Below are positions 16,549 to 33,582 of a stretch of DNA of 64,000 nt, piece after piece. This DNA comes from an uncultured Chloroflexia bacterium. GTDB lineage: Bacteria; Chloroflexota; Limnocylindria; Limnocylindrales; CSP1-4. The notes under the pieces were generated by a model. It was given only the letters and a program-made list of their open reading frames with translations, had not been told where the DNA came from and did no database searches. Made by a program: the position numbers and the translations under genes. Every line of letters begins with the position of its first letter. Positions within the stretch are counted from its first letter, which is position 1. The DNA lies in the NCBI GenBank assembly GCA_963713975.1, contig OY970218.1, positions 800,001 through 864,000 of the forward strand, read 5' to 3'.

Positions 16549-16564
16549 TGGTCGGGGCGAGAGG
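16549..16564. repeat. att core copy 1 (tRNA-Pro 3' end)
   Basis: TGGTCGGGGCGAGAGG, 16/16 identical to 34206-34221. Confidence 0.9.
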
Positions 16565-16652
16565 AGGCAAACCTCCACGACCGACCTTAGCGTCCCGCAA
16601 GTCCGGCGGCCTTCGTTCAGCGGTGACTCACGTGGCGCCCGGCGTCGTCCGC

Positions 16653-17828
16653 TCAGCCGCGACCGACGACCATCGCCTCGTAGTCCACGAGGAGGTCGAA
16701 CAGGTCCGTGGCGGCGTACTGGCGGTCGTAGGTCCCCTGGCTGATCTGTGTGAGGACCCCGGCCTCGGCAAGAGACTTGAGCGCCGCGAGCGTCTGTTGC
16801 TGGCTGGTGCCGATGGCCGTACGCGCGGTAGGCGCCGAGAGGACCGGCAGTGCCGGCAGGAGCGCGATCAACTTCGACGCCGCCGATCCGGACCTCGGGT
16901 TCCCGGCGAGGTCCATCCAGCCCCGCTGGAGGGCCGCCACCCGGTCCGCCAGCACCACCGACGCCGATGCCGCATCCCGGGTCGCGGCGGCGAATGAGCC
17001 GATCCACTCGGCAAGCCTGCCCTCCCGGAACCCGACGAGGCCGTCCACGTACGCGCCGGGCCGCGCGGCCAGCACGATGGACACCGGTGGCACGAAGCGC
17101 ACGGTGGCACCCCGACGGCGCAGGACGACATGCACCAGACACCGTCCGACGCGACCGTTGCCGTCGAGGAAGGGGTGGATCGTCTCGAACTGGGCGTGGG
17201 CGATCGCGGCCTGGGCAACGACCGGCAGGTCGTCGCGACCGAGGAAGGCGGCCAGGTCCTCCAGCAGGCCGGAGACGAGATCCTCGGGCGGCGGGATGTA
17301 CCGGGCATCGGACGGGTTGTCCAGTCGACCGCCGATCCAGTTCTGCTCCTCTCGTACGCACCCCGGCCGCGCCCGCTCGTCGCCGGCCATCAGTGTGCGG
17401 TGGATCGCGAGCAGGTGGTCGACGGAGACCCGCTCATCGCCTGCACCGATCGCAATCGCCTCCTCCATCGCGGACACGTTCGCCGCGACGATTCGCGCGC
17501 TCCCCTTGGCCGCACGGGGATCGACCAGGGCACGGGCGAGGTTGAGGGAGCTGACGTCGTAGCCCTCGAGGCGGGACGAGGCCACCGCCTCCGATCGCAG
17601 GAGCAGCGGTCCGATCGCCTCGAGCCCGCCGACCGACGCCCGGTCGTTCAGGGCCCGGATCGCGGTCGCGGCTGCGGCCGCGAGGTCGGCCGTCTCGAAC
17701 GGGACGACCGGTGCGAGGGTGGCGACCGGGTCAGGCACGAAGGCCCGATAGCGGAAGGTGGCCCGGGCGCGCCGCCCGCCGATCGTCCCCGGATCGCCTT
17801 CCCAAACGCGCTCGACCGACCGAGGCAT
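16653..17828 (-). CDS. Fic family protein with C-terminal HTH
   Basis: HAQFETIHPFLDGNGRVGR Fic motif; EAVASSRLEG inhibitory-type motif. Confidence 0.95.
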   Translation of the reverse strand: MPRSVERVWEGDPGTIGGRRARATFRYRAFVPDPVATLAPVVPFETADLAAAAATAIRALNDRASVGGLEAIGPLLLRSEAVASSRLEGYDVSSLNLARALVDPRAAKGSARIVAANVSAMEEAIAIGAGDERVSVDHLLAIHRTLMAGDERARPGCVREEQNWIGGRLDNPSDARYIPPPEDLVSGLLEDLAAFLGRDDLPVVAQAAIAHAQFETIHPFLDGNGRVGRCLVHVVLRRRGATVRFVPPVSIVLAARPGAYVDGLVGFREGRLAEWIGSFAAATRDAASASVVLADRVAALQRGWMDLAGNPRSGSAASKLIALLPALPVLSAPTARTAIGTSQQQTLAALKSLAEAGVLTQISQGTYDRQYAATDLFDLLVDYEAMVVGRG

Positions 17829-18008
17829 GACTGTGGCACCCTTCACCTGCCGTCCAACAGTGAACGGATGGGCACACACTAGCCATCTAAACCTTCAATG
17901 TCAACGAACGAATGAAGGGTTGGACGGCGACCCGGCTCAGCGCCGACGGCGGGAAGGTGCGCGGAGCACGGAGCCCCGTGACGTCCAGGGGTCTCGGGGC
18001 TGATGACC

Positions 18009-18024
18009 TGGTCGGGGCGAGGGG
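18009..18024. repeat. att core copy 2
   Basis: TGGTCGGGGCGAGGGG, 15/16 match to the tRNA-Pro 3' end. Confidence 0.8.
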
Positions 18025-18245
18025 GCTCGGGCCTCCGCTACCCGGCAGATCCGCGGTTGCACCGTCGCCATGGGCGGCAGGCGCCCGTCAGTAGACGAGA
18101 CGCGCATCGCATGAGGCCGCGGCCGTCACGCCCCGCCGAGCGCGCCACGGACCGGGACGTCTCTGGCCGGCTCCGACTAGCTTGAAGGGGCGAACGAGCC
18201 GTTTGCCTCTGGTCATCTTGGGCCGCCCGTGCCGAGAATCGCCCC

Positions 18246-18320
18246 AGCGGGAGGCTGTGACGCGCGGCTCATGCAGCGGCCGCCCGGACCGCGCCGAGCC
18301 ACTGGCGAGACCGACCCGCT
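18246..18320 (+). ncRNA. c-di-GMP-II-like riboswitch (GAG-type variant)
   Basis: P1 AGCGGG/CCCGCT, kink-turn GGCTGTGA...GAGCC, pseudoknot CGCC/GGCG, 3' GAGACCGACC; 19 nt upstream of a start codon; homologous to 56541-56615. Confidence 0.8.
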
Positions 18321-18339
18321 CGCGCAGGAGGGCGGCGCG

Positions 18340-19020
18340 ATGGGTCTGCGCAGATCGTTCTGGCTGCCGTTCTTCGGGGTGCCGCGCGGTCCGCTCGGGT
18401 GGGTCGGCGCTCGGCTGCTGCCGAAGGTCGCCCGGCCCCTCAATGCGATGGTGGCCGGGCAGCTGGCCCTCGGGCCCGACGATTCGTTGTTGGAGGTTGG
18501 CTGCGGCTCCGCAGGGTTGCTCGTCGAGCACGCCTCGCATGTCCGCCACGTCGCTGGCCTGGACGCATCGGAGATCCAGGTGGACATGGCCAGGAAGCGG
18601 CTGGCCGACCGCATCGCGGCAGGGACGGCCGAGATCGTCCTTGGCAACGCGATGGCCCTGCCGTGGGAGGACGGCCACTTCAGCGTCGTCGCCTTGGTCA
18701 ACTGCCTGAAATTCGTCCCTGATCCCCTGAAGGCCCTGAGCGAGATGCATCGGGTCCTCCGTCCCGACGGACGGCTGGTGCTCACGATCGACAAGCAGGT
18801 CGACAAGTGGGGTCGGTCGGGCAAGATCGACGCGTTCGGCCAGTGGCAGTGGAGCGTGGATGACATGCGGCGGATGATGGAGGAGGCCGGCTTCGCCGAC
18901 GTCTCCGTCGCCGATATGCCGACCAAGCTGGGCCTTCAGTTCGTGCGTGGCGCGAAGCGGGCGGCACTGCCTGTCGCGGAGGCCGCCGAGGCGCCGGCGC
19001 TCGTGGGGGCGGCCGGATGA
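18340..19020 (+). CDS. Class I SAM-dependent methyltransferase
   Basis: LLEVGCGSAG, GLDAS, GNAMALPW, EMHRVLRPDG; AGGAGG RBS. Confidence 0.9.
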   Translation: MGLRRSFWLPFFGVPRGPLGWVGARLLPKVARPLNAMVAGQLALGPDDSLLEVGCGSAGLLVEHASHVRHVAGLDASEIQVDMARKRLADRIAAGTAEIVLGNAMALPWEDGHFSVVALVNCLKFVPDPLKALSEMHRVLRPDGRLVLTIDKQVDKWGRSGKIDAFGQWQWSVDDMRRMMEEAGFADVSVADMPTKLGLQFVRGAKRAALPVAEAAEAPALVGAAG

Positions 19021-19556
19021 GCACCCCGCTGACCGGGGACCGTCGCACCGGCACGCCGCACGCGACGCCCCACTGGCTGATCCGCCTCGTTGGGGTCGTC
19101 CACCTCGCCGGCTATCGGCTCAGGGGCGGGAGGCTCGGGCTCTCGCGTCCGACTCCCGCCCGCTGGGGCAACATGTGCATCACCACGACCGGACGCAGGA
19201 CAGGCAAGAAGCGGCGCGCGATGCTCGGCTACTTCGATGACGGCCGGAACCTAGTCGCGTTGGCCGTGAACGCTTGGGCGGATGCCGAGCCCGCCTGGTG
19301 GCTCAACCTTCAGGCGCATCCCGACGCCGTCGTCGAGCTCAAGGACGGGTCCCGGGCGGTCCATGCACAAGCGGCTGAAGGCGACGAACGGACGCGCCTC
19401 TGGGCGCGCTGGCGCGAGCTGGGAGAGCGGTCCGGCGAGGCCATGATCGCGAATTGCGACGCGTACGCCGCCGGGATGAACCGCCAGCCGGCGGTCGTGG
19501 TGTTGGAGCCTGCAAGTGCACCCCGGGATAGCCCGCCGGACAACCGTCGGGGATGA
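19017..19556 (+). CDS. Deazaflavin (F420)-dependent nitroreductase/quinone reductase family protein
   Basis: TTTGRRTGKKR and PAWWLNLQAHP motifs; ATGA overlap with the upstream gene. Confidence 0.88.
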   Translation: MSTPLTGDRRTGTPHATPHWLIRLVGVVHLAGYRLRGGRLGLSRPTPARWGNMCITTTGRRTGKKRRAMLGYFDDGRNLVALAVNAWADAEPAWWLNLQAHPDAVVELKDGSRAVHAQAAEGDERTRLWARWRELGERSGEAMIANCDAYAAGMNRQPAVVVLEPASAPRDSPPDNRRG

Positions 19557-19586
19557 GTCGCCGACGCTCACCGAGGAGGCAGAGAG

Positions 19587-19718
19587 ATGACCGCGTCGAG
19601 GCGCCCGGGCGGCATGTACGTGCGCGAGTCCGACCTGCCATCCGAGCTCCGCCGCGAGCCGGCACCGGAGGCGGAAGCGGTGGAGCGGATGCGACGGAAG
19701 GTGGCGGCGGCCGCCTGA
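19587..19718 (+). CDS. Small hypothetical protein (43 aa)
   Basis: GAGGAGG RBS then ATG; MTASRRPGGMYVRESDLPSELRREPAPEAEAVERMRRKVAAAA; operon position. Confidence 0.5.
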   Translation: MTASRRPGGMYVRESDLPSELRREPAPEAEAVERMRRKVAAAA

Positions 19719-19736
19719 GCGCGGGAGGCTACAACG

Positions 19737-20440
19737 ATGCGACTCACCCCATCCCTGCACCGACTTGGTGAGGAGATCGTCGGCTGCTACCTCGTGGACC
19801 CGCCTATTGCGCCGACCTGGCGACCGAGCTCGCAGCCATGGGCCGCACGATCGATGACGTCCGGGCGCTCGTGTTGACCCACGGCCACGGCGACCACACC
19901 GGGTTCGCCGAGCGACTGCGAGCCGAGCATGGCGTGCCGGTCAGCATCCACCCGCTCGATCTGGCTCAGGCCCGGGGCACGGCCGGTAACCCGAGCGCGG
20001 GCATGGGCGAGCGCAGGCTCCGTTCGCTGCTGCACTACCTCCTGTGGCTCGCGCGTCACGGCGGGATGCGCGACAGGCCGGTGAGGGAGATCGGCACGTT
20101 CGAGCCAGGCACCACGCTCGACGTGCCTGGCGCGCTGCGCGTCATCCATGTGCCGGGACACACTCCCGGCAGCGTCGCCTTCCATTCCCCGGCACACGAC
20201 GCCCTGTTCGTGGGCGATGCGCTGGTGACGGACGCTGTCATCAACAACCGGCACGGTCCGCAGATCAGTCCCTTCGCCGCTGACCCTGACCAAGCCCTAG
20301 CCTCCTTGGAGAACTTCGAGCAGCTCGAGGCGCACTGGCTCCTGCCTGGACACGGGAGTCCTTGGACCGGCGGCGTCGCTGCCGCCGTGACAGCCGCGCG
20401 CGACGTCGGAATCGGGCACTTGGCCCGACCGAGGCGCTGA
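19737..20440 (+). pseudogene. MBL-fold metallo-hydrolase, frameshifted near 19800
   Basis: GGGAGG RBS plus MRLTPSLHRLGEEIVGCYLVD in one frame; PAYCADLATELAAMGR...THGHGDH...PGHTPG...PGHG in another; the usual xxDAG motif is missing. Confidence 0.75.
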
Positions 20441-20537
20441 CGACGCGTCGGATCGTCGCTCCCTGCCCGCCCGATCCCGAAGGCATGGCCCGAACGACCG
20501 AATAGAAACCTGGGCTCGCCGCCCGCACCCTCGAGGC

Positions 20538-21236
20538 ATGACTTCGGCCGTCCGCGCCACTCGCCGCACTCGCGACGGCCGGCCAGCCGTGGTCCGGCGC
20601 CCGTACGCCCTGACCATGCTCCACTGCGCCAGCTGCGGCCGGCACCTGATTGGCGACACGGGGCGGTACCGGCACCCGGACCCCTGCGAGGCGTTCACCG
20701 CCGTCCGACGCGAGCCACAGAAGCGAAGCCGGGGACAGCGCGTGGGGATGCCGGGCCACGGCGATCGCGCCGAGGAGTACGAGGCCATCGTTCGCGAGGT
20801 CCTCGCGCAGGTCTCCCTCGGGTCCGACGGGATCGCCGCGGTCGTCGAGGCCACGCGGGCGCCGGAGCCCGACCGCCTTGCGCTGGCCAGGATCGGCCGG
20901 GAGCGCGACGCTGCCGTGGCGCGCTACCGCCGCGACCGCGACCTACACGCGCTCGAGGCGTCCATGGCGGCGCTCGACGAGCAGGAAGCCGAGGCCCGCG
21001 ACCGCCAGCCGGCGCCCGAGCTCGCGGCGGTCGAGGTCGCGGCCTACCTGCGGGACCTGCAGCGACTGTGGGACGACGCGCCGGACTCGAGGCGTGGGCT
21101 CACGGAGTCGCTGTTCGAGCGGGTGGAGGTCCTCGGACTCCGGCGGATGCACCTGGAGCCGACGCCGGCCGCGGTCGCCGCGGGCCTCGTAGAGGCGTTC
21201 TCGTGCGCATCTGCTGGTTATGGTCGGGGCGAGAGG
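20538..21236 (+). pseudogene. Large serine recombinase C-terminal remnant (Zn ribbon plus coiled coil) running into att core
   Basis: RRPYALTMLHCASCGRHLIG Zn ribbon, coiled coil, LFERVEVLG, ends GYGRGER on the tRNA-derived core; catalytic N-terminus absent. Confidence 0.75.
21221..21236. repeat. att core copy 3
   Basis: 16/16 match to the tRNA-Pro 3' end. Confidence 0.9.
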
Positions 21237-21449
21237 GATGGCCCGCCACCACGACCTTTCGATCACGATGCGCCTCGCGGAGCCGCCGGTGCCCTGCGAG
21301 CTGGACAGACGGCGCAGCTGGTGTGCATCCTGGCATTGCGCCTCCTGGAACCCGACGGCCTTGTCCCAGCAGATGACGAGGGCCTGTTCCGGCCCGGAGG
21401 CGTCGATGTTGCCGACAGGATCGCGGGGAACGGCGCCATCAGCCGCCGA

Positions 21450-22910
21450 TCACGCGCCAGGCGTGTGGTAGAGCTTGAACGTGCCCGTCTCGATCATCCT
21501 TCCCGACTCCTTGATCCACTCCTTCTTGGCGTAGTACTCGTCGCCGAAGACCTCCCAGTCGATGGCGACATAGCCGCCGCCACTCGCGCCGTCGGTGTCG
21601 AGCTCCGCGATGTGGGTCGCGAGGAAGGTGTTCGTCCAGGCCGGGAACGGGGGAAGGGGCAGGCGTGGGCCCGATGACCCGCAGATCTTGATCTTCGCGC
21701 TCTCCGACGTGGGGCCGGGCATGTAGTTGAGGAGGAAGTCGATCTCCCGACTGTCGAACTGGTCCGGCCTGGCGCTCAGAATCCGCAGCCTGTTGACCAC
21801 GAAGTCGCCGTCGCCCGTGATGCTCGTCGCCCCGCACGGTGCCTTGAACTTGAAGGCCGTGTTCACCAGTAGCGCCTCACCGTAGATCCGGCTCTCGTCG
21901 GGATCGAACCGGAGCATGACCTCCGACGTCACCGTGGATTCATAGCCGCCGTCGGCCACGTCCAGGATCCCAGTCGACTCCACCTTCAATTGGAAGGTCA
22001 GGCACTTGACGGTGAGGTCGCGCGCCTCCCGCAGCGGCGCTTCGTCGAGCGCCTGCCCGAACATGCCAAACACCGCGAACTGGCGTTCCATGCTCCGCCA
22101 GACGAGGGCCATCCGGTGGATGACGTGCTCCTCGACGCACAGCTCGAACTCCTCGATGATGCAGACCCTGGCGGCCTTCTCCACGAGCCCCGGGTACCGC
22201 TCTAGTCCGCTCGCCGTCGAGGACAGGCCCAGCAGCTGCCGATGGCGCTCCAGGGTGATGACGGACTCGATTGCCAGCCTGCCCTTGGCACAGCTCTCGC
22301 CGGCGACAGCGACGCGGGGCACCACCACCTGCCGCTCGTACTCGAGCATGGTCGCCTCGTACGCGGCTGACAGGAAGGCGCCCTGGAACTCGCCGCCTTC
22401 CTGTCTGATCCGGATGACCTCGGCGTTGAGCGCGGCCGTCAGGCGCCGCTCGGCGTCGCCGCCGATGCGCCTGCGGTCTGGCTCGATGTCGGCCAGCAGG
22501 CCCCGCGTGACACCGTTGCCGCTGAAGTGGGGGACCGAGATCTGGATGTCCGTCGACCCGATGACCGGCTGGGCCAGGATCACGTCCCTGCCGTCCGCTT
22601 CGTAGCCGAACGGGAGCTGCTCGCCCGGCGGGATCGGCTGGGCCGGCGCGATCGTGAGGACGGCGGGGTTGTACAGGAAGAGGCCGTCCGGGCTGAGCTG
22701 GACCCCATAGGTCTGCTGGCCACCGAAGGGGAGGCCTCCGACGCTTGCGACCGGGGTCAGCCCGATCGACGTCTCGGTCAGGAGGGCGTTCGCGGGGATG
22801 TCGAGCGTGTAGACGGTGCCGTCGGCGCCGGTTGCGCTGACGCTGCCGCCCTCGATTGGAATGACGGCTTCGACGGCGCCCGCCGTTTCAAGCGTGAGGG
22901 CGAGGTCCAC
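21450..22910 (-). CDS. Hypothetical protein, probably 5'-truncated exported protein
   Basis: 486-aa protein-like ORF with beta-rich N part and Cys residues; no RBS or signal peptide; abuts the ATPase fragment junction. Confidence 0.65.
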   Translation of the reverse strand: MDLALTLETAGAVEAVIPIEGGSVSATGADGTVYTLDIPANALLTETSIGLTPVASVGGLPFGGQQTYGVQLSPDGLFLYNPAVLTIAPAQPIPPGEQLPFGYEADGRDVILAQPVIGSTDIQISVPHFSGNGVTRGLLADIEPDRRRIGGDAERRLTAALNAEVIRIRQEGGEFQGAFLSAAYEATMLEYERQVVVPRVAVAGESCAKGRLAIESVITLERHRQLLGLSSTASGLERYPGLVEKAARVCIIEEFELCVEEHVIHRMALVWRSMERQFAVFGMFGQALDEAPLREARDLTVKCLTFQLKVESTGILDVADGGYESTVTSEVMLRFDPDESRIYGEALLVNTAFKFKAPCGATSITGDGDFVVNRLRILSARPDQFDSREIDFLLNYMPGPTSESAKIKICGSSGPRLPLPPFPAWTNTFLATHIAELDTDGASGGGYVAIDWEVFGDEYYAKKEWIKESGRMIETGTFKLYHTPGA

Positions 22911-22944
22911 CGGGGCCGCCGCCGAGTCGAGGATCCAGGCTGTA

Positions 22945-23725
22945 CAGCACGAGATCGCGGAGCTTGCGCGTTAGCCCTGACAAGCTCAGGGTCTTGTTGA
23001 GGCGCTTCATCGCGGCAGATCCGGAGGCCAGTAGGCGGAAGACGGAGCTGAGGAGCAAATTGGGGAGGTCACGTTCGCGGGTGGTCGACGCTGTGACGAA
23101 GGTCCAGGAAGCGCAGGCCCGGCTTTCCCGTCTCCCGGCGCTCGAGGAGCGACTCAAGCGCTACCAGAAGGCGGGAGTGGAAACTCGCCTCAAGGAGCGC
23201 AGCCAGCTCGTCACGGAGGAGCGGATCCTGACCTCCGCTGCAGATGCCGTCGCAGCAAGACGCTCGATCGTTGACAGCTTCGCGGCAGTCCTTCCGATCG
23301 ACCGCGGCTACCTTGACGCGACGAAGCTCAAGGACCTGAAGGGCCGCCCGATCCTCGAGGAGATCGAACCAGTCTTGGAGAAGCTCGAGCAGGATCTCGA
23401 GGCGGCACAGGCAGGTGCGGAGAAGGCAATCAATGCCGCAGCCCTCGCGGTTGAAGCGATCCGAGCAAAGTGGCAAGTGAGGCAGGCGGCGGTCCAGGAG
23501 GCATATGCGAAGGTCTTGCGAGAACTTCAGACGACACGCATCGACGCCAGGGAGTTCCTGAACCTTCGAAGAGACATCGAGGAACTCGTGCCGGTCCGCG
23601 ATCGCCTGCCGGAACTCGAGACCGAGCTCAAGGAGGCGCGCTCCGCTCGAGATGACCTCTTGGCGGATTGGGAGGACGCGAAGACTGCAACCATGCGACG
23701 CCCAGCCATAACGTCTTGCCGCTGA
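22945..23725 (+). pseudogene. Internal coiled-coil fragment of a TrlF/PHP-AAA-like ATPase
   Basis: QHEIAELA then frameshift to SPDKLRVLLRRF...RLPALEERLKRYQKAG.E.RLKE.S.LV.EERIL; no Walker A or PHP domain; visibly more A-rich than flanks. Confidence 0.6.
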
Positions 23726-24083
23726 CTCCGGACGCCGCTCCTGATCGTAGCCCGAGCGCTATCGCGGCACAGACGAGACCCGATCCATCGGTGCCCACGA
23801 CCGCACGAGCCGCAGCAGGGACCGGGCCTGCTTCATAGAGAGCCGACGGTCGCCGTAGGGTCTCCCTTGTGAGGACCGGGCGTCGGCGAACGAATGGGCA
23901 AGGGCTAGGAATGCGAGGTGGACGCCGGGCTCCACGTCTTCCGCAAGCTCGTCGAGCACGACCTGCAGGCACCGGGATCCGCCCCAATCCCGCGGTGTCC
24001 CCCCGCTCCGATTCCGCGCGCCCGGCGCGTCATCGGGCGGGCACGCCTTGTGACAGTCCTCACGATGCCCGACACTCCCGGCC

Positions 24084-26861
24084 ATGGAGGTCATCGGGCG
24101 TGACGCCGAGCTCCGCGGGGTGGACACGTTCCTCGACGCGGTGACCGGGTCGCTCGCGGTCCTGGCGATCCGGGGCGAAGCGGGCATCGGCAAGACCACG
24201 CTCTTCCGGGAGGCGGTGCGCCGGGCTGCCGAGCGCGGCTTCACCCTCCTGGTCGCCCAGGCCGCGGCCGCCGAGGCTCACCTGACGCTGACGACCCTCG
24301 CCGACATCGTGGAACCCGTGGTCGACGCGGCCGGTGACGCGCTCCCGCCGGTCCAGCGGGCGGCGCTCGACGCCGCGCTGCTCCGGACTGGACCATCCGA
24401 GCGACCACTCGAGCCGCGGCTCCTCGGCGCCGCCACCCGGTGTCTGCTCAACCACCTGGCGTCGACGAGCCCGGTGCTCGTCGCGATCGACGATGCGCAG
24501 TGGGCCGACACGGCCTCGGCGTCGACCCTCGCGTTCGCGCTCCGCCGCCTCCCATCCGCCCCGGTCGGCCTCCTCCTGGCGCTGCGGACCGGCGAGCCCG
24601 CTCCGCCCGCGCTCGCGTCGATCGCCGACTCCGAACGCACGACATCGATTGACATCGGCCCGCTCTCCGTGGCGGCGCTCCACCACCTCCTCAAGGCGCG
24701 GACCGGGCGTTCGCCCTCCCGCTCGGTACTCATCCGGATCAGGGAGGCGTCCGGGGGCAGCCCACTGTTCGCGCTGGAGATCCAGCGCGCCCTCGACGAG
24801 GGTGGCATGCCCCCGGCCGGTGAGCCACTGCCCGTCCCGCCGGACGTCCGCGCGCTCGTCCGGGACCGGATCCGCCGTCTGCCAGACGCGACCGCAGACC
24901 TGCTGCTGGTCGCGGCAACGGCCGGTCGCGCCCCGGTGGAGCTCATGGCTCGGGCGCTCGGGCGGCCCGTGGACGGGGACCTCGCGATCGCCGCGCACGA
25001 GGACATCGCCCGCGCCGAGCGTGGCGCCATCATGTTCGGACATCCCCTGTTCGCGGCAGCGGTCATGGCCGAGGCGACGCCCGACCATCGTCGCGCAGCG
25101 CACCGGCGCCTCGCCGATGTCGTCGCGGGAGTGGAGGAGCGCGCCCGACACCGGGCGCTGGGATCCGCCGGGCCCTCCGCCGACCACGCCGCGGAGCTCG
25201 ACAGGGTCGCGGCCCAGGCGAACGGCCGCGGGGCGCCGGCCTCCGCCGTCGAGCTCCTCGACCTCGCGATCGTCGTCACGCCCGAGGGCGACGGGGCCGG
25301 CCGCGACGCCCGCCGCCTGCTCGTCGGCGAGTACGCCCATCGTGCGGGGGACGCCGGCCGCGCCCAGGTGGCGCTGGAGCGCGTCATCACGGGGGCGGAT
25401 GATCCGAGGATGCGCGCGCGGGCCGGCCTCGCGCTCGCCGCGATCCGGTACGAGGCGGACGCGGCGAGCTCCGCGTTCGAACTTGCGAACGCGGCGTTGG
25501 ACGACGCCGAAGGCGACCCGCAGCTCATGGCGCGGGCGCACGCCACCCTGGCCGCTGTGGACTGGGAGGACTTCAGTCGGCCCGCCGCCCACGTCGCGGA
25601 GGCGCTCCGGCTCCTGGGGACGGTCGACGATCCGGATCCGGTCGTCCTAGGGCTCGCCCTCATGGGGCGCTGCGCCACGGATGTGGCCGCCGGCCGCACG
25701 CTGGATCCCGTGATCGTCGAGCGCGGGCTCGAACTCGAGCGCCGGGCCGCGCCGTCGAGCGTCGCCGACCGGTTCAGCGCCTCGCTCGGGGCCTGGCTCA
25801 AGACGCTCGACGACTTCGCCGGTGCCCGGCGCTGGCTGGAGGGGACCTACCTGGCGGCGATGGAGGAGGGCGATGAGGGGTCCCTTCCGTACGCGCTCAG
25901 CCACCTGCCGGAGCTTGAGCTCTGGACCGGCGACTGGCCGGCCGCCGAGTCGTACGCCCGCCGCCACCTCGAGATCGCGACCGACCGTGAGCTCGAGTCG
26001 CAGCGCCGGCAGGCCCTGTACAACCTCGCCCTGGTACACGTCCACCAGGGACGCGACGCCGAGGGCCGGGCCGAGATCGACGAGGCGCTCGCGGCGGCCG
26101 CCACGGACGGCGACAGCTGGACGGTCACGAGCGTCACGCCGCTCCTGGGCCTTCTCGAGCTCCTCGCGGGGAACGCGGCCGCGGCCGCCGGGCACCTCCT
26201 CCGGGCCACGGAGCAGCGCGAGGCGATGGGCCACGTTGCGCCGCGACGGCACGACCAGGACCTCGTCGAGAGTCTGGTCGCCGTGGGGGATCTCGACCGG
26301 GCGCGCGAGGCTGTGGATCAGATGGAAGCCCGCGCCGGGCGGTACCACCGGCACTCGGCACTCGCCAACGCCGCGCGCTCGCGGGCGCTCACCGTCGCGG
26401 CGTCCGGCGATCTCGACGGCGCGATCGCCGCGCTGGACCAGGCGCTGGGAGAGCATGACGCCGCGCTGATCGAGGTCGACCGGGCACGAACGCTGCTCAC
26501 GATCGGCCAGGTACGGCGGCGGCGGCGTGAGCGGCGCGCGGCCGGAGCCGCGTTCGAGGCGGCCCTGGTCACCTTCGAGCGGCTGGGCGCCGCGACCTGG
26601 GCCGAGCGGACCCGCGCCGAGCTCGCCCGGACGGGCATCCGGCGTTCGGCCGGGCCCGGCCTCACGGAGACGGAGTGGCGGGTCGCCGAGCTGGCCGCGT
26701 CGGGGATGACCAACCGCGCGGTGGCTGCGGCGCTGTTCCTCAGCCCCAAGACCGTGGAAGCGAACCTGTCGCGCGCCTACGCCAAGCTCGGGGTCGCGTC
26801 GCGAGCCGAGCTCGGGGCCCTGCTGGGCCGAGGCCGAGGGTCCGAGACCCTGCAACCGTAG
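24084..26861 (+). CDS. Large ATP-binding LuxR-family regulator (AAA + TPR-like + LuxR HTH)
   Basis: IGRDAEL, GEAGIGKT Walker A, IDDAQWAD, C-terminal LTETEWRVAELAASGMTNR...LSPKTVE. Confidence 0.93.
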   Translation: MEVIGRDAELRGVDTFLDAVTGSLAVLAIRGEAGIGKTTLFREAVRRAAERGFTLLVAQAAAAEAHLTLTTLADIVEPVVDAAGDALPPVQRAALDAALLRTGPSERPLEPRLLGAATRCLLNHLASTSPVLVAIDDAQWADTASASTLAFALRRLPSAPVGLLLALRTGEPAPPALASIADSERTTSIDIGPLSVAALHHLLKARTGRSPSRSVLIRIREASGGSPLFALEIQRALDEGGMPPAGEPLPVPPDVRALVRDRIRRLPDATADLLLVAATAGRAPVELMARALGRPVDGDLAIAAHEDIARAERGAIMFGHPLFAAAVMAEATPDHRRAAHRRLADVVAGVEERARHRALGSAGPSADHAAELDRVAAQANGRGAPASAVELLDLAIVVTPEGDGAGRDARRLLVGEYAHRAGDAGRAQVALERVITGADDPRMRARAGLALAAIRYEADAASSAFELANAALDDAEGDPQLMARAHATLAAVDWEDFSRPAAHVAEALRLLGTVDDPDPVVLGLALMGRCATDVAAGRTLDPVIVERGLELERRAAPSSVADRFSASLGAWLKTLDDFAGARRWLEGTYLAAMEEGDEGSLPYALSHLPELELWTGDWPAAESYARRHLEIATDRELESQRRQALYNLALVHVHQGRDAEGRAEIDEALAAAATDGDSWTVTSVTPLLGLLELLAGNAAAAAGHLLRATEQREAMGHVAPRRHDQDLVESLVAVGDLDRAREAVDQMEARAGRYHRHSALANAARSRALTVAASGDLDGAIAALDQALGEHDAALIEVDRARTLLTIGQVRRRRRERRAAGAAFEAALVTFERLGAATWAERTRAELARTGIRRSAGPGLTETEWRVAELAASGMTNRAVAAALFLSPKTVEANLSRAYAKLGVASRAELGALLGRGRGSETLQP

Positions 26862-26955
26862 GGAATCCCCCGATGCAGCGTCGGTGCCCGGAACCCAAAG
26901 TCGGGGTTGGGCAAGCCCCGACCGGCGCGGGCTCCCGGAGAGCCGAGGTCAGCCG

Positions 26956-27546
26956 ATGCGTCCCGCGTCCCCCTTCCAAGCGCTTGCCGGGCTCGCCTGT
27001 CTCCTCCTCGTGGCTGCCTGCTCCGCGTCACCCGCGTCACGCGCGACAACCGCCTCGACCGCTCCGTCGGCATCCGAGGCGGCAGCGGCCACATCGGGAG
27101 CGGGCGATCCCTCGCCCTCCGGGTCACAGGAAGGCACCGGGCGACCCGCCGGCGAGACCGACGACTACACCCTGTTCACGACCGATCGCCTCGCCGCGCT
27201 CGTCGGCCAGCCGGTCCACGTCGGCGACACGAGCCTGCTGTTCGGGATGGGCTGCCGATGGGACACGGCCGACGGCCGGGGCGGCGTCGTCATCCAGCAC
27301 CAGCCGGTCCACCTCGGGTGCGGGGATATCGCCGCGCAGGACGGGCAGCACCCCGTGACCGGGGTCGGCGACGAGGCGACCATCGGCCCGGCTGCGTTCT
27401 ACGGGACCAATGGCGACGGGCCGTTCGACGCTACGATCGCCGCCGCGATCGTGGGCGAGGGCTTCGTCTCGGTCGTGATGGCACCGGCGCCGTCCGACGA
27501 CACCGTCGTGGGGCTACTCCGCGACCTCGCCGGCGCGGTGCGCTGA
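26956..27546 (+). CDS. Lipoprotein (DUF3558-like)
   Basis: LLVAAC lipobox, Ser/Ala/Pro linker, GCRW, VTGVGDEA. Confidence 0.75.
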   Translation: MRPASPFQALAGLACLLLVAACSASPASRATTASTAPSASEAAAATSGAGDPSPSGSQEGTGRPAGETDDYTLFTTDRLAALVGQPVHVGDTSLLFGMGCRWDTADGRGGVVIQHQPVHLGCGDIAAQDGQHPVTGVGDEATIGPAAFYGTNGDGPFDATIAAAIVGEGFVSVVMAPAPSDDTVVGLLRDLAGAVR

Positions 27547-27547
27547 G

Positions 27548-29101
27548 ATGGCAGGATCCGTGCGCCGCGGCGCCAGGCCGATCAGCGCGCTCCTCGCGAT
27601 CGCGCTGCTGGCCGGCCTGGTGGCGGGATGCGCCGCGTCCCCGTCACCGGCCGGATCGCCCGCCGGGTCCGCCACGAGCCGCCCGTCGAGCCCAGCGGCG
27701 ACCGAGAGCCTGAGCCTCGAGGACGCCGTTCTGGCCTACGGCCAGGGCCCCACGCGCGATCCCTCGATCACGTACCAGCCCGATGTCGTGTTCGTCGAGG
27801 GCGGTCCATCGAGCATCCGGTGGGCTAGCGCCGACGGGCTGACCTGGGCCATCGACCGCAACGCGCCCGGCGCGGCGGACCTCCGGACCGGGTCCGTCAT
27901 GTTCGCCACCACGGTTGCCCTCGGTCGCGTGACGGCGATGGAGGACCAGGGCGACGACCGGATCGTGCACCTCGCGCCAGTTGACCTGACGGACCTCGTG
28001 AGAGACGGAACGATCGAGTTCGACCAGGACCTGGACCTCGCCGACGCCACCTATCGCCAGCTTCCCGACGACATGCCCGCCGTCCTGACCGACGCCGACT
28101 CGCCGCCCTCACCCAGCCCCGGCGCGGATCTCGCACCGACGGACGGCACCGGGGTGGTCACGATGCCGCCGATCCGGCTGGCTGCGGCCCGCACCGGGCT
28201 CCCGGCGATCGAGCCTGCCGCCGTCGGCAAGCTGACGGTCCCAAGCAAGGTCTGCCCCAAGCTCGGGATCAGCGACTGGAGCGTGGAGTACTGCATCCAG
28301 GGCCCGGGCCTGTCCCTGGCGATCGACCGCAAGCTTGGCGGCCACCTCAAGGTGGGGGTCGGGCTCAAGCTGCTGACCAGCAAGCTGCGTTTCCACGCCG
28401 GCACGGTCATCAAGGGCGGCCAGATGATCGACTCCGGCGGCCTGCTCGACGGCCTGGATGGCTTCGAGCTGGACCTCGCCGGGGGCGTCGAGGACGGCGC
28501 CCAGGACAACGTCAAGATCAAGATCGAGGTGCCGGTCGAGATCGAGACCGGCTCCATCGTGGTCGGCGGGATCCCGCTCAAGATGTACATCGAAGCCAAG
28601 TTCACGATCGAGACCGCGTTCTCGGGGAAGAACTCGACGCTCAGCGGGACGGGCGAATACCACTTGAGCGGCCCGATCGGGATCCAGGGCGGGAAGCCCG
28701 TCGTGCCCCAGCTCACGGTCGTCCGGAGCCTCCTCGACAGCCTCAAGGGCATCACCGTGGGGCCCAGCGGCGTGGTCATCGCGGTGAAGTGGAAATTCCA
28801 GGGCGGCGTGGGGCTCTACGGCTTCGTCGCGGGTCCGTACCTGACGGTCACCTTCGCGATGGGCATCGGCCGCGGGTCCGTGATCGGGGCGCCGCTCGCC
28901 GTGTGCCACGGGGCCACGCTGGGGATCTGGGTGGGCGCCGGGGGCGGGTTCAACCTCAACGCGTCGAAGCTGGGCTGGCTGCTGGGCAAGGACAGCCTGG
29001 TCGCGAAGTACCTCAAGGCCAAGATCGATATCGACCTTCTCCAGTTCGAGGTCGTCAACAAGAAGGCGGTGACCCCCGATGTCCCCCTCTGTCGTGGCTG
29101 A
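27548..29101 (+). CDS. Large hypothetical lipoprotein
   Basis: LVAGC lipobox; beta-rich, Gly/Lys-rich C-terminal half; operon spacing. Confidence 0.8.
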   Translation: MAGSVRRGARPISALLAIALLAGLVAGCAASPSPAGSPAGSATSRPSSPAATESLSLEDAVLAYGQGPTRDPSITYQPDVVFVEGGPSSIRWASADGLTWAIDRNAPGAADLRTGSVMFATTVALGRVTAMEDQGDDRIVHLAPVDLTDLVRDGTIEFDQDLDLADATYRQLPDDMPAVLTDADSPPSPSPGADLAPTDGTGVVTMPPIRLAAARTGLPAIEPAAVGKLTVPSKVCPKLGISDWSVEYCIQGPGLSLAIDRKLGGHLKVGVGLKLLTSKLRFHAGTVIKGGQMIDSGGLLDGLDGFELDLAGGVEDGAQDNVKIKIEVPVEIETGSIVVGGIPLKMYIEAKFTIETAFSGKNSTLSGTGEYHLSGPIGIQGGKPVVPQLTVVRSLLDSLKGITVGPSGVVIAVKWKFQGGVGLYGFVAGPYLTVTFAMGIGRGSVIGAPLAVCHGATLGIWVGAGGGFNLNASKLGWLLGKDSLVAKYLKAKIDIDLLQFEVVNKKAVTPDVPLCRG

Positions 29102-29681
29102 GCAGCGTGGCCCGTGGCGGTCTCGCGGATGGCTCGTGGCCCGCCGGGCCGCCGGCGCGGTGGCGCTGGCGCTCCTGGTCGCATGTTGCTCGGGCGCGCC
29201 CGTCCCAGCGGCCACCGCGACACCGCTCGCGATCACGGCCGAGCCGGCAACGCCCACGCCCAGCCAGGTCCCGGCCTCCGACACCCCGCCCCCGCCGACG
29301 CCCGCCGCGATCGACCCCTGCGGGCTGATCACGCACGACGAGGCCAACGCCCTCGCGGGGGTCACGGTGCAGGATCCCGAGCCGGCTGGCGAGCCGCCCG
29401 TCCGCTGCGTCTGGGCGACCCCGGTGACGGGCGCGATCGGCCAGGTGGAGATCGATGTCGGGGACGGGGCGAAGAAGGCCTACGACATCGACGCCACCGT
29501 CCTGGGCCACACGTTCGCTCCGGTCGCGGATGTTGGCGACGAAGCCTACGCGGAGGACGGCGCGATCTTCTTTCGCACGAGCGACACCTGGGTCGCGATC
29601 CGCGTCATCCGTCTCGATGACCCCGCCAGGAGCTCGGGACCTCTCGAGCAGCTGGCCCGCGTGGTCGTCGGGCGGATCTGA
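29079..29681 (+). CDS. DUF3558-like lipoprotein (start uncertain)
   Basis: LLVACC lipobox, DPCGLIT, CVW, VADVGDEAY. Confidence 0.75.
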   Translation: MSPSVVAEQRGPWRSRGWLVARRAAGAVALALLVACCSGAPVPAATATPLAITAEPATPTPSQVPASDTPPPPTPAAIDPCGLITHDEANALAGVTVQDPEPAGEPPVRCVWATPVTGAIGQVEIDVGDGAKKAYDIDATVLGHTFAPVADVGDEAYAEDGAIFFRTSDTWVAIRVIRLDDPARSSGPLEQLARVVVGRI

Positions 29682-29683
29682 CG

Positions 29684-30031
29684 ATGTCCGGGTCGGTGCG
29701 CACGTTCCTCGCCGAGTGCTACATCCCGGGGATCGAGGAGTCCTCCGTGGCCGCCGCGGCGACGCGGGCACGCGCGGCCGTCCGCGCCCTTGTCGCCGCG
29801 GGCGAGCGCATCGAGTACCTGGGTGCCGTCCTTGTCGCGGGCGATGAGGTCGTGTTCCACACGTTCGGGGCGCAGGATCCTGTGCTCGTCGAACGGGCGA
29901 GCCGGAACGCGGGCCTGGCGTTCGAGCGCATCGTCGAGTCCGTGGCCGTGGACGGGGCCGACCCGGGCCTCGCCGGGCAGCGGCTAGCTACGGCGCCGGG
30001 GTTGCGTCGACGGGCGAGCCGCAGTCGGTGA
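29684..30031 (+). CDS. SCO4226/DUF4242-like (nickel-binding family) small protein
   Basis: FLAECYIPG...IEYLGAVLVAGDEVVFHTF...AGLAFERIVE pattern. Confidence 0.65.
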   Translation: MSGSVRTFLAECYIPGIEESSVAAAATRARAAVRALVAAGERIEYLGAVLVAGDEVVFHTFGAQDPVLVERASRNAGLAFERIVESVAVDGADPGLAGQRLATAPGLRRRASRSR

Positions 30032-30097
30032 ACCACAGGACCGCGCCGCCGCCAGCGACCACAAGGAGCACCCGGCGTACCGGGTGATGCTGGCAGG

Positions 30098-30330
30098 ATC
30101 GCGGAGGCCGTGTTCGAGCGGATCGATGTCCTGGGGGTGACCGACTTCACGTTCACGCTGACCGCTCACGCCAAGGCGCGAGGCTGGGACGCGGCCTTCG
30201 GGGCCGGCGCCGTCCGCGTGAAAGAAGGTCGATCTGGTCGGGGCGAGAGGGGTAGCCCCGCCACCACCGACCTTCCGATCACGTTGCGCCTCGCCGAGCC
30301 GCCGGAGCCCTTCGACTGGGCCGATGCACG
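30098..30330 (+). pseudogene. Second serine recombinase extreme C-terminal remnant spanning att core
   Basis: IAEAVFERIDVLG...TAHAKARGWDAAF...GRSGRGER aligns with LFERVEVLG...TPAAVAAGLVEAF...GYGRGER of the 20538 remnant. Confidence 0.7.
30235..30250. repeat. att core copy 4
   Basis: 16/16 match to the tRNA-Pro 3' end. Confidence 0.9.
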
Positions 30331-30606
30331 GCGTCCTCGCTGCCACCGAATCTGCCGTTCGTCGTCTTCACCTTCAGGTTTGCGCCGGATCCGCCGGCGG
30401 TCGAGGCGGTGAGACGCCGCCGGCGGCGCCGCTGGGCGAGTTGGCGACGTGGGACAGCGGCCGGAGCTACCGAACGTCGCCGACCCAGGTGGATCCGCGG
30501 TCGGCAGCCCGCCTGAGTCGCACGACCGATTGCCCGCGGTCAATACGACTCGACCGACCGTTTCCGAGCGACCACTGGTTATGCGCGACTCACAACGGCC
30601 ACGGGC

Positions 30607-33582
30607 CTATCCATCGGCCGGCGGCAGCAGCCCGAGGCGGGTGGCCGCGGCGGCCGCGTCGTAGCGACTCAGCGCTCCGAGCTTGTCCATCGCGTGCGTC
30701 ACGTGAACGGACGCGGTCTTCTCCGAGATGAAGAGCCGAGCGCCGATCTCGCGGTTCGTGTGTCCCGCTGCGACGAGCGCGAGGACCTCCCGCTCGCGCG
30801 TCGTCAAGGGCGTCTCGCCTGACGCTTCGGCGGTCGCGGCGTCGGCCGCCATGTCCAGTCGGATCCTCGCTCGAGATGCCAGGGCCTCTGTCGCGCGCTG
30901 CAGCGGCACCGCACCGAGGTCGGTGGCCACCGCGTGCGCCTCGCGCAGGGGTATGGCTGCGTCCGCCGCCGACCCGCCGCTCGCGAGGATCGCCTCGGCA
31001 TGGCGGTATCGGACGGATGCCGACTCCCACGGCTGCTGCAGCACGCTTCTCGCCTGGACGGCGACCGCCCAGCGAGCGGGGTCCGCGCGACCCTCGAGGC
31101 GCTCCGCTTCGGCGTCCATGCGCAGGACCTCCGCTCGGACCAGCGGGCCGCCACCGTCGGCGTCGATCGCCCGCCGGGCACTTCGGCGGAACAGGTCGAT
31201 GAACCGCCGACCGGCGATCACCGCTTCGTCAGCTTCGGTGCGCCGGCGTCGACGGCGGGCGGCGCCGGCGTGATTCGCTTCGCCCTCGGTCGCCTTGACG
31301 AGCGACCACCACAGGGTCGCGTCGTGCTCGGGCTCAGGCACGGCCTCGATCGAGGCATCCATCAACCGGCGGCCATCGGCGTGCCGCCCGGTCGCGTACG
31401 CCACGAAGATCTGGTCCTCGAGCTGCCAGACCCGGTGCGGTCCGACGGTCGGTATCCGAGCACCCTGCTCGATCTCCCGCTCGGCGTCCTGGGTCCGGCC
31501 CAAGTACGTGTTCAACCGGGCGAGCGACATATGGATATAAACCATCTCGAACGAGAAGGCCACGAGGGTCATGATCTGGTCCGCGGTCGCAAACGCCTCC
31601 GGCCATCGGCCGAGCTCGACGAGGTTCTCGAGGACGCCGTGGAGCAGGTGCGCGCCGTACCGACCGTCGGCGCCGTCGCGTCGCGCGATCTCGAAGCCGT
31701 GACGGTCGTGGGCAAGGCTCCCCTCGAAGTCGCCTTGGATGAAGCCGGTCGACCCTCGCCAGTGATGCGACCGAGCCCGGATGTCGGGGTCCAGCACGAC
31801 GTCGAGGAGTCGTCCGGCCTCCGCGAGCACCGCTTCGGCACGGCTGGTCTCGCCGAGGTGGGTATAGACCTGACCGAGGACCGTCAGCGCCCGGACGAGT
31901 TCACGGGGCGCATCGACAGCGCGGGCCACGTCGATCGCCACGGCACCCGCCTGGAGTGCGGTCGAATACCGACCGTAGTGCCAGTGCAGCAATGCCTCGG
32001 CGGCGAACGCTCGGGCACTTCGCTCTGACCGCTCGTCGCGCAAGACCGGGAGGGCCTGACCTACCGCCCACTCGGCGGTTTCGACGTCCGCTGCCTCCCA
32101 CGCGTAGTCGAACAGCTCGAGCTGGGTCGCGACCCGGCGCGCGACGTCGTTCGGCTCGTACGTCGTCAGGGCCTCGCGCGCCAACGTAACGGCACGGATC
32201 TGGTGGCCGGCGGCCGCCGCCGCGCGGGCGGCTCTTGCCTGCACCGCGGCCAGATCGAGCCCGGCGAGCCTCGCGGGATTCTCGATTCGGGGCCATAGCT
32301 CCAGCATCCGGTCGAGGTGGACCTCCGCATCGGCATGGGCTGAGGCAGCCTCGGCGGCTGCGACCGCGTCGCGGGAGGCAACGAGTGCCCGGGTCAGATC
32401 GCCGGCCGCCATCGCGTGGTGGGCGATCTCACCGGCTCGGCGAGTGTCGGCTGCCCCCGACGCGGTGGCGTCGCTCTCGAGCGTGTCGGCGATCGCCAGG
32501 TGGACGGCGGTGCGCTCCACCGCGAGGAGTTCGTCGTATGCCGCCTCGCGGACCAGGGCGTGGCGGAAGGCGTACCCGGGAACCGGTTCCGCGACATTGA
32601 CCAGGATGCGCGCATTGATGGCGTCCTTGAGCGCCGCGATGAGCACCGAAGCCGGCTCTCCCGCGACCCGTTCGAGCAGCTCATGGTCGACCGCCCGACC
32701 GGCGACCGCGGCGATCCCCAGGACGCGTCGCGTGGGTTCGTCCTGGGTGGCGAGCCTGGCGATCAGAAGCTCGCGGAGTGAGGCCGGGAGCGACTTGCCG
32801 CCTGCGGCGCCGCTGGCGATGAGTTCCTCGGCGAAGAAGGGGTTGCCGTCGGAGCGCTCGAAGACGTCGCGGGCGACGTCGCGGTCGGGCGCGGTCCCCA
32901 AGATCCCGGTCAGCTGCTGGGAGACTTCGTGGGCATCGAACCGTTTGAGGTCGATCCGCTCGAATCCCGGGAGACGGTCGAGCTCGGAGACCGCCGCACG
33001 CAGCCGATGACCTCGCGCAGCCTCGTCGAGCCGTGCGGTCAGGACGAGCACGTACCGTTCGTCCCCCATCGACCGAGCCAGGTAGGTCACGAGGTCGAAC
33101 GTGGATGGGTCGGCCCAATGCAGGTCCTCGATGACGACGACGAGCGGCTCGGTGATGGCCGCGGCTGCGATCGCATCCCGCACGGCGGCGAAGAGTCGTC
33201 CCTGGTCGCCCAGGTGCGGGATCGACCCCGACCCGGCGTCGACGGCAAGCCCCGGGACCAGTCGACCGAGTTCGGCCAGTGTCGGCGGCGGCAGCGATGA
33301 GGTTAGACCGACGCGCTGCAGATCTCGGACGACGTCGACGAAGGGGGCGTACGGGAATGTCCCGACCGCCAGGTCGATGCAATGCCCGGATACGGATGTC
33401 GATCCGCTTGCAGCGGCGAGGGTCGACACCTCCGCCAGGAGCCGGGACTTGCCGACGCCGGCTTCGCCGGCGATCAGGACGACCTGCGGTCGCCCGGCCG
33501 CGGCACGGTCCAGCGCCTCGGCGAGCGCCGCGCGCTCGGCGACGCGGCCAATGAAGATCGGGCTCGAGACGCGACGGACCAC
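30607..33582 (-). CDS. Large ATP-binding LuxR-family regulator
   Basis: SSPIFIGR, GEAGVGKS, IEDLHWAD, GNPFFAEEL, FRHALVREA, C-terminal LTTREREVL...ISEKTASVHV. Confidence 0.93.
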   Translation of the reverse strand: MVRRVSSPIFIGRVAERAALAEALDRAAAGRPQVVLIAGEAGVGKSRLLAEVSTLAAASGSTSVSGHCIDLAVGTFPYAPFVDVVRDLQRVGLTSSLPPPTLAELGRLVPGLAVDAGSGSIPHLGDQGRLFAAVRDAIAAAAITEPLVVVIEDLHWADPSTFDLVTYLARSMGDERYVLVLTARLDEAARGHRLRAAVSELDRLPGFERIDLKRFDAHEVSQQLTGILGTAPDRDVARDVFERSDGNPFFAEELIASGAAGGKSLPASLRELLIARLATQDEPTRRVLGIAAVAGRAVDHELLERVAGEPASVLIAALKDAINARILVNVAEPVPGYAFRHALVREAAYDELLAVERTAVHLAIADTLESDATASGAADTRRAGEIAHHAMAAGDLTRALVASRDAVAAAEAASAHADAEVHLDRMLELWPRIENPARLAGLDLAAVQARAARAAAAAGHQIRAVTLAREALTTYEPNDVARRVATQLELFDYAWEAADVETAEWAVGQALPVLRDERSERSARAFAAEALLHWHYGRYSTALQAGAVAIDVARAVDAPRELVRALTVLGQVYTHLGETSRAEAVLAEAGRLLDVVLDPDIRARSHHWRGSTGFIQGDFEGSLAHDRHGFEIARRDGADGRYGAHLLHGVLENLVELGRWPEAFATADQIMTLVAFSFEMVYIHMSLARLNTYLGRTQDAEREIEQGARIPTVGPHRVWQLEDQIFVAYATGRHADGRRLMDASIEAVPEPEHDATLWWSLVKATEGEANHAGAARRRRRRTEADEAVIAGRRFIDLFRRSARRAIDADGGGPLVRAEVLRMDAEAERLEGRADPARWAVAVQARSVLQQPWESASVRYRHAEAILASGGSAADAAIPLREAHAVATDLGAVPLQRATEALASRARIRLDMAADAATAEASGETPLTTREREVLALVAAGHTNREIGARLFISEKTASVHVTHAMDKLGALSRYDAAAAATRLGLLPPADG

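Follow-up and report, generated by a model that had tools for sequence, protein, structure and literature searches.

The locus studied here raises the question of whether the integration of a mobile element exchanges the C-terminus of its own recombinase, and of whether the exchanged tail matters as protein or just as DNA of the attachment site. The initial annotation had proposed the exchange, from a recombinase reading frame seen to cross its att core. The window, i.e. the whole stretch of DNA analysed (64,000 nt; positions 800,001 to 864,000 of contig OY970218.1), has a G+C content of 70.8% and belongs to a genome of 3.62 Mb in a single contig. Its relevant features are the following, in which core copies are scored as matches out of 16:

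34206-34282, minus strand: integration target, tRNA-Pro(CGG), called by ARAGORN.
16549-16600, plus strand: outermost core copy (16/16), marking where the array ends distally, with a P′ arm of the RQTSTTDL.. class.
18009-18185, plus strand: core copy (15/16) with a tail-coding arm of class Q (..TRQIRGCTVAMGG..RIA*).
20541-21236, plus strand: 3′ remnant of a large serine recombinase gene (tblastn match, extending to 21245, to residues 253-487 of the relative P0001, 88% identity).
21221-21236, strand unassigned (.): core copy (16/16) at a P-O-P′ (attP-like, tandem) junction.
21237-21356, plus strand: decayed P′ arm of class T, ..DLSITMRLAEPP.., with two single-base deletions (alignments).
30086-30250, plus strand: second recombinase remnant, of the ..RSGRGER subfamily, running into the core at 30235-30250 (tblastn).
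30251-30319, plus strand: in-frame, tail-coding P′ arm of class T, GSPATTDLPITLRLAEPPEPFDW.

Read in reverse complement, the 3′ end of tRNA-Pro(CGG), with its CCA, gives the core, which is repeated on the plus strand. The 16-mer TGGTCGGGGCGAGAGG occurs exactly at 16549, 21221, 30235 and 34206, the last copy being the 3′ 16 nt of the tRNA itself (34206-34221). These four sites, all noted in the initial annotation, were recovered, and a further copy with one mismatch, at 18009, has to be added to that list. In a search over the window with the 17-nt stretch 21222-21238 as the query, allowing up to 3 mismatches, 5 sites were obtained versus 1.44 expected, and 0 of 100 shuffles reached 5. Between the cores, Pfam identified cargo genes, which encode Fic/DOC, a methyltransferase, a metallo-beta-lactamase-fold protein, two AAA_16-LuxR regulators and DUF3558 lipoproteins, and therefore the region 16549-34282 is read as four decayed integrative elements arrayed at tRNA-Pro(CGG). 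Two of the junctions, at 21221 and 30235, look like attP because they are P-O-P′ junctions between neighbouring elements.

Concerning the ends of the arms, that of 18009 has its stop at 18112-18114, and the overlapping ATG 18111 opens a 24-codon remnant of an HTH gene. After the class T arm, 21309-21356 translates as TAQLVCILALRLLEPD, which reads like the C-terminal end of a small GerE-type HTH gene; this putative remnant was not picked up by tblastn of the window. In the arm at 30251-30319, the usual end (RSA, with the stop overlapping the next start) is deleted.

As to the cargo, 16653-17894 (minus strand) encodes the Fic/DOC protein, while 24054-26861 (plus) and 30607-33912 (minus) encode large AAA_16/STAND-like ATPases with a C-terminal LuxR HTH and TPR repeats, possibly regulators or defence-type sensors. 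Two long open reading frames, 21450-22970 (minus) and 27479-29101 (plus), of 506 and 540 amino acids, show strong coding bias (GC3 0.91-0.92) and matched no Pfam family at E 0.01.

When the window was searched by tblastn with five relatives, two recombinase remnants were found and no more. The first one keeps the zinc ribbon, the coiled coil and the C-terminal mini-domain. Its match is limited to residues 253-487 of a reference of 510 amino acids, and thus the catalytic N-terminal half (252 residues) is missing; the ATG at 20538 is not the start of the gene. The second remnant comprises the last ~52 residues, matched at 30086-30235, and is 85% identical to residues 419-470 of the L051 recombinase (query trimmed to its last 470 residues before the core). 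Both remnants cross the core as GRGER, as had been noticed: the frame of 20538-21236 ends there as ...AGYGRGER and the frame ending at 30250 as ...EGRSGRGER. What follows the core was also read correctly at each copy. After 30250, the translation continues into the class T arm; beyond 21236, the alignments show the same arm minus two single bases, which puts its conserved motif out of frame; after 16564, beyond the outermost core, the frame reads RQTSTTDLSV; and at the tRNA it reads GRGERI followed by a TGA, located within the T-loop. No intact recombinase was found in the genome, the search giving a single match, the window remnant itself. Nothing of the integrase system is active in the present genome, which holds only relics of it.

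The window remnant alone gave no Pfam match, and the family was identified through homologue searches. The reading as a recombinase was right, and its class, which the initial annotation did not state, can be added: the enzyme is a large serine recombinase (serine integrase), carried by phages and small elements of Chloroflexota. The relatives found in databases have 485-520 amino acids with Resolvase (PF00239) and Recombinase (PF07508) domains. PF00239 scored above its cut-off in P0001, P0009, L051 and L010 (41-47 bits versus 23.3); the window remnant, in which that half is absent, has no resolvase-type catalytic domain. PF07508 scored 22.8 and 25.7 bits in P0009 and L010 (cut-off 21.1) and 20.4, slightly under it, in P0001. 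In the alignment of the relatives, the catalytic motif R..S...Q is nearly invariant and the C-C-H-C set (C281, C284, H297 and C301) is invariant. AlphaFold models (mean pLDDT 87.3 and 88.1) displayed two long helices at 364-406, and the best full-length PDB matches by Foldseek were the SPbeta, Bxb1 and phiC31 integrases, with E values from 4e-12 to 1e-9.

Related loci were collected from 80 genome contigs, 18 viral contigs and 80 metagenome contigs. The genome contigs are nearly all from Chloroflexota MAGs labelled 'Chloroflexia' or Limnocylindrales. At least some members belong to temperate tailed phages, because the junction of the viral contig L087 lies between RecE/RusA genes and genes for terminase, portal and major head proteins; in L093, the other viral contig with capsid/packaging matches, it is terminase-large-subunit matches alone that lie beside the junction. 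Other members reside in small elements of 3.8-5.5 kb (L051 and L049).

The crossing of the core proved to be a property of the family. Among 151 recombinase 3′ ends in the fetched relatives, after exclusion of 6 more that ran off their contigs, 145 cross the tRNA-Pro core and 6 lack such a core; none stops before it, whereas a stop ahead of the core was one of the two outcomes named in the initial annotation as refuting its reading. Five of the six coreless ends finish in tails of the same kind after apparent cores derived from other tRNAs. Two lineages cross the same core in different frames, as ..GYGRGER (frame A) or as ..MVGARG (frame B). On a FastTree phylogeny of 122 distinct open reading frames (from 127 with at least 400 codons), the distribution of the frame needed 6 changes, versus a mean of 39 after shuffling; branches with good support make at least 4 of the 6 unavoidable. 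Since the same core is crossed in two frames, the residues encoded by it are dictated by the tRNA; the corresponding stretch has a pLDDT below 50 in both AlphaFold models, as for a linker.

At the tRNA itself, frame A always reads GRGERI* (34 of 34 cases), its TGA being provided by the T-loop. In frame B this TGA is not in phase, and translation goes on antisense through the tRNA for 9-165 residues (26 cases with the stop in view), so prophage forms of this lineage carry arbitrary antisense-tRNA tails and junk C-termini are tolerated. At junctions away from a tRNA, the 45 frame-A cases with the stop in view had tails of 22-37 residues in 30 cases, 1 residue in 8, 7-10 residues in 2 and 49-374 residues in 5. 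The long tail is thus not universal, 8 of these 45 attP-type junctions having a tail of a single residue. Frame-B tails at such junctions had a median of 10 residues (28 cases). Out of 60 database proteins, 51 contain the GRGE[RS]-type motif; 13 end one residue later and 38 continue for 10-38 residues, with the terminus [ST]A in 31 of the 38. On viral contigs, a long in-frame tail was present at 9 of the 10 mid-contig, core-bearing, non-tRNA junctions with the far side on the contig. The proposal that excised and integrated forms differ in their tails is borne out in that short and long forms both occur in nature, and the tail swap between free and inserted forms is real and family-wide. The chimeric tails predicted for tandem junctions exist as well: in L047 and L164 a frame-A arm follows a frame-B recombinase.

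Where both ends of an element were visible without a core between them, the frame of the far-end arm was compared, by hand tally, with that of the element's own recombinase. The arm was in frame in 8 of 9 elements, so these 8 would regain a long in-frame tail upon excision:

Frame-A arm with frame-A recombinase: L049, L051, L004 and L071.
Frame-B arm with frame-B recombinase: L009, L104, L020 and the L033 element (arm L181, 25 residues, ending in SSA).
Exception: the L061 element, with 7 residues only.

For the 31 junctions with a frame-assigned arm class (also tallied by hand), 19 were in frame and 12 were out of the conserved frame of the arm; the latter may be chimeric tandem junctions between unlike neighbours. 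In some frame-B elements, the segment may be a separate small open reading frame, started at a TTGA or GTGA overlap. The array with L031, L033 and L061 had been considered as proof that frame-B elements own frame-A arms, but further cores were found in between, so the pairs are not cognate and the claim was dropped. That locus (G001:C6:28-81022) is a very long tandem array that ends at tRNA-Pro; its seven exact cores share a strand and are spread over 81 kb, and it contains at least three intact recombinases.

Whether the tail is coding cannot be judged from its length, since in DNA with 71% G+C stops are rare (about 0.018 per codon, by arithmetic from base composition) and ~30 open codons are no evidence in themselves. 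For this reason, the substitution pattern is what has to be looked at. Ninety-two distinct arms were clustered, and the six frames were compared in gap-free blocks. Among the stop-free frames, the lowest pN/pS corresponded to the recombinase's own frame, with the following values (variable columns given for codon positions 1/2/3):

Set Q1 (4 of the 10 class Q arms): pN/pS 0.32, variable columns 3/7/13.
Set C4 (4 of 4 arms, frame B): pN/pS 0.24, variable columns 7/4/14.
Set C1 (6 of 8 arms; left out, L132m with a 1-nt insertion and L158): pN/pS 0.54, variable columns 15/13/20.
Set T6 (6 of 9 class T arms; left out, L007 and L056 with a 3-nt gap and L064, diverged): pN/pS 0.58, variable columns 7/5/7.
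Set Q10 (all 10 class Q arms, proximal 45 nt only): pN/pS 0.63.

Summed by hand over Q1, C4, C1 and T6, the variable columns were 32, 29 and 54 at codon positions 1, 2 and 3. The last 29-30 codons of the enzyme body gave a pN/pS of 0.13-0.16. With 4-10 sequences per class, the codon signal is weak for class T, which is the class of the window, and for the proximal stretch of class Q. The constraints on the proximal arm are mixed, because the first ~27 nt are probably an attP half-site.

Stronger evidence for coding than pN/pS comes from the codon use of the tail terminus, which across classes and frames is R-S-A (32 arm readings ending in [ST]A). The terminal arginine is encoded by CGC, CGG, CGA, CGT or AGG; the serine by both of its codon families, AGC (10) as well as TCC, TCG and TCA (12); and the alanine by all four codons. 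In representatives of a wider clade, with 30-40% identity, the cores crossed are different tRNA-like ones (..ARPAG.., ..VGDTG.. and ..VGGEG..), and their long forms end in ..[VI]x[IV]P[IV]xGRxEWLxxxRSA. In the AlphaFold model of P0039, the H-type tail forms a beta-hairpin at 489-504 (block pLDDT 84-90), while the class T tail of P0001 reaches a pLDDT of only ~56, of low confidence. The initial annotation had allowed for a tail conserved as DNA only; the lowest pN/pS in the recombinase frame, the codon switches in RSA and the far-end arms in frame in 8 of 9 elements speak otherwise. The tail shows codon-level constraint, and most probably it belongs to the enzyme of the free form as a genuine part. 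A resemblance of R-S-A to the host ssrA tag was considered and has no direct support, since the tag of the host tmRNA is ANKQPALALAA, which ends in LAA, and the likeness comes down to the final alanine.

With respect to the anatomy of the att site, the dyad symmetry of the P-O-P′ sites is best when centred on the core's last GG, for both frames (0.46 and 0.48 versus a mean of 0.27), in a set that contains no empty attB. As judged from this symmetry, the position would fit a crossover by a serine integrase where the identity block ends on its right side, the last 14 nt of the tRNA then coming from the element. In phiC31, contacts on attP reach ±27 bp according to the accessible part of the report (bioRxiv 10.1101/2025.05.02.651858). 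By analogy, the half-site would take up the first ~9 codons of the tail only, and the conserved strand and the RSA end would fall outside it, 36-110 nt out. The P′ arms of all classes (e.g., window 30251-30275 and 18025-18050) begin with a T-arm-like R-N-T-N-R-R-N-C-C followed by a partial complement of AGAGG, and the element side appears to mimic the tRNA T stem-loop without being identical to it.

Among the 32 arm readings with an [ST]A end, 26 have a tail stop that shares bases with an ATG, GTG or TTG. The gene starting there usually encodes a GerE/LuxR-type HTH protein (PF00196) of 70-86 amino acids, and sometimes a ParB-like or other protein. Because of this overlap, integration also separates that gene from the recombinase. 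By its position adjoining attP, the small GerE-type gene is a candidate regulator or directionality factor. In the 3.8-kb element of L051 (5700-7200), an intact GerE-type HTH gene is accompanied by two fragments of the same (..HLANARSKVGA.TTAQLVWIL..), as if several left ends had piled up.

The reading that we consider probable as a whole is as follows. The flagged stretch would be the 3′ half of a dead large-serine-recombinase gene, joined through the core to the left end of the next element. [quoted passage not shown] In the free or tandem form, the frame would enter a conserved tail of about 22-40 residues, typically made of a predicted beta-strand or hairpin, then a proline-rich stretch and a C-terminal R-S-A, with a stop that commonly overlaps the start of the next gene, often one for an HTH protein of the GerE/LuxR type with 80 amino acids. 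Integration would cut the frame at the linker; one lineage would then meet the immediate TGA of the T-loop, and in the other one, which crosses the core in a different frame, the integrated frame would run antisense through the tRNA. The architecture, the two natural forms and the coding constraint on the tail follow from the data above, to which we would add that the enzymes of the free form and of the prophage may differ in activity or stability, and that integration may uncouple the downstream gene from translation of the recombinase. For a difference in activity, the support is indirect, namely the constraint on the tail and the predicted hairpin.

Going one step further, the tail could be a built-in sensor of the state of the element, with the hairpin and the R-S-A end encoded by the free DNA alone and the direction of recombination set partly by the topology of the gene. 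This is a tentative idea, which we find possible rather than likely. If it were true, an integration-competent (or short-lived) enzyme would be made from free DNA and a different, tail-less one from the prophage, and translation of the GerE-type regulator would be coupled to the integrase in the free state only. Directionality would then come in part from the enzyme's own gene topology, beyond a separate directionality factor, in a wide clade of tRNA-targeting serine integrases.

A rival explanation, which we regard as unlikely, is that the overlap is a matter of compaction only: attP, which has to include the tRNA's 3′ end, would by chance sit where the recombinase gene ends, the conserved coding segment past the core would be a small leader open reading frame or a bridge for translational coupling of the downstream regulator, and its fusion to the recombinase would be incidental, with no role in the enzyme. 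The frequent overlap of the tail stop with the next start speaks for it, the tolerance of the enzyme to antisense-tRNA tails agrees with it, and in most tail classes an internal ATG, GTG or TTG is found ~11-19 codons ahead of the stop. Furthermore, arm classes C1, C2 and T are joined also to frame-B recombinases, which stop 4-10 codons past the core; for C1 (5 of the 9 junctions of this kind), a TTG, ATG or CTG from which the frame-A segment might start overlaps that stop or comes immediately before it; for C2 and T, either the stop is found a long way upstream of every such codon or the recombinase frame continues beyond it. The motif QQIRGC.V, located upstream of any start codon, varies mainly synonymously (CGG/CGC/AGG, GGC/GGT and TGC/TGT), which argues against compaction, as do the cognate arms in frame in 8 of 9 elements and the confident hairpin of the H-type tail. 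In addition, frame-B lineages with C4 or C10 arms hold the whole tail of 22-38 codons in frame B, and RSA is retained whatever the gene downstream, be it an HTH, a ParB-like or a phrog_464 protein, or none.

That the tails are a chance open frame in G+C-rich DNA, i.e. untranslated attP-arm DNA that is alike through conservation of recombinase binding sites, is highly improbable and largely refuted here: the ~30 open codons expected by chance from our own arithmetic and the half-site that should occupy the first ~27 nt past the crossover by the phiC31 analogy are in its favour, but conservation reaches 80-110 nt past the core, beyond any serine-integrase site of 40-50 bp, tail lengths cluster at 22-37 codons with no geometric decay, codon-position bias and switches between serine codon families are present, and the tail motif is kept over different tRNA cores and frames at 30-40% protein identity.

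The reading preferred here, with the crossover inside the recombinase gene and a tail that is coding, can be compared with known systems. An open reading frame that crosses its own attP is known in kind, the printed precedents being DsiB and the Mx8 IntP, the two closest ones, neither of which is named in the initial annotation. For the Dehalococcoides serine recombinase DsiB, the accessible text of McMurdie 2011 (PMC3146451) describes that the 3′ end of dsiB always overlaps attL, with a stop located either within ssrA or within the adjacent island, and that the protein is maybe fully functional on the circular element only; the overlapping part was judged by the authors to be divergent and unlikely functional. 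The likeness extends to a serine recombinase, a Chloroflexota host, the 3′ end of a tRNA-like gene (T-loop region) as the target and tandem arrays marked by direct repeats (PMC3146451). From the same description, the target of DsiB is ssrA, whereas here it is tRNA-Pro; DsiB is accompanied by a small recombinase, DsiA, and a six-gene module; and its islands are not phages. Compared by description, the tail studied here differs in its coding constraint, conserved RSA end and predicted hairpin.

In the myxophage Mx8, attP lies inside the integrase open reading frame, the target is a tRNA, and integration gives int a new 3′ end (IntP/IntX), the prophage integrase having altered properties, as told in the accessible parts of PMC6070905 and PMC4383910. 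The Mx8 integrase differs in being a tyrosine recombinase, of unrelated fold and chemistry. A far larger part of the integrase is exchanged in Mx8 than in the tRNA-Pro family. The original studies on IntP and IntX are reportedly those of Tojo 1996 and Magrini 1999.

In the mycobacteriophage BPs, attP lies in the open reading frame beside int, and the viral form of the protein is 33 residues longer than the prophage form; the extra tail carries a C-terminal degradation tag, and integration thereby switches protein stability (PMC4557955, in the text available). The split gene of BPs is, however, the repressor and not the integrase, which by that account is a tyrosine recombinase. The conserved RSA described here is unlike the host tag ending in ..ALAA, and from its sequence it would be a candidate degron at most. 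Mx8 and BPs are the tested cases in which integration alters a protein C-terminus, as far as the accessible portions of PMC6070905 and PMC4557955 tell. In archaeal integrases of the SSV type, the recombination site is also within the integrase open reading frame (PMC7253208, accessible part). These are tyrosine recombinases whose gene is split into two inactive parts, while here only the last ~30 residues are exchanged.

Concerning serine integrases at tRNA genes, the Islander paper (PMC4383910, accessible part) states that they were not known there; it also describes the integrases of Mx8 and SSV as reaching across attP. Integration of serine recombinases into tRNA genes is called rare in the available text of Ghinet 2011 (PMC3218068), which names Mycobacterium AICEs (tRNA-Leu) and the phage phiRSM1 (tRNA-Ser); their hosts and targets differ from those described here, and a statement that the open reading frame crosses attP was not found in that text. 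Nothing on serine integrases in tRNA genes was found in the accessible parts of the TIGER/Islander and Integrase-On-Demand publications. A word search of the open-access literature, which proves little, returned no description of the tRNA-Pro family or of the conserved tail.

The consequences may be considered at two levels. That the open reading frame crosses the core and the tails swap holds across a large family, while the directionality or stability switch suggested in the initial annotation is no more than a possibility. Serine integrases are prized for genome engineering as unidirectional enzymes, their direction being attributed to a separate directionality factor. A clade whose integration rewrites the C-terminus of the enzyme would offer a second, self-contained discrimination between free and inserted states, and would be a source of new integrases that are directed to tRNA genes and use short sites. 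Annotation routinely gets such genes wrong, because the true stop depends on the state of the element and tandem junctions give chimeric tails.

Two minor observations concern the target and the core elsewhere in the genome. A second tRNA-Pro(CGG) was called by ARAGORN at C1:349217-349305; it is unusually long (89 nt) and may contain an insertion or be a false call. Four further cores lie outside the window, on the minus strand and far from any tRNA-Pro (C1:1806180, 1731283, 1301673 and 1300592). One of them follows a recombinase-like ..EGRS end and has an arm of the RQTSTTDL type, and another has a class T arm; the four copies have the look of old secondary sites, or of relics that rearrangement has displaced.
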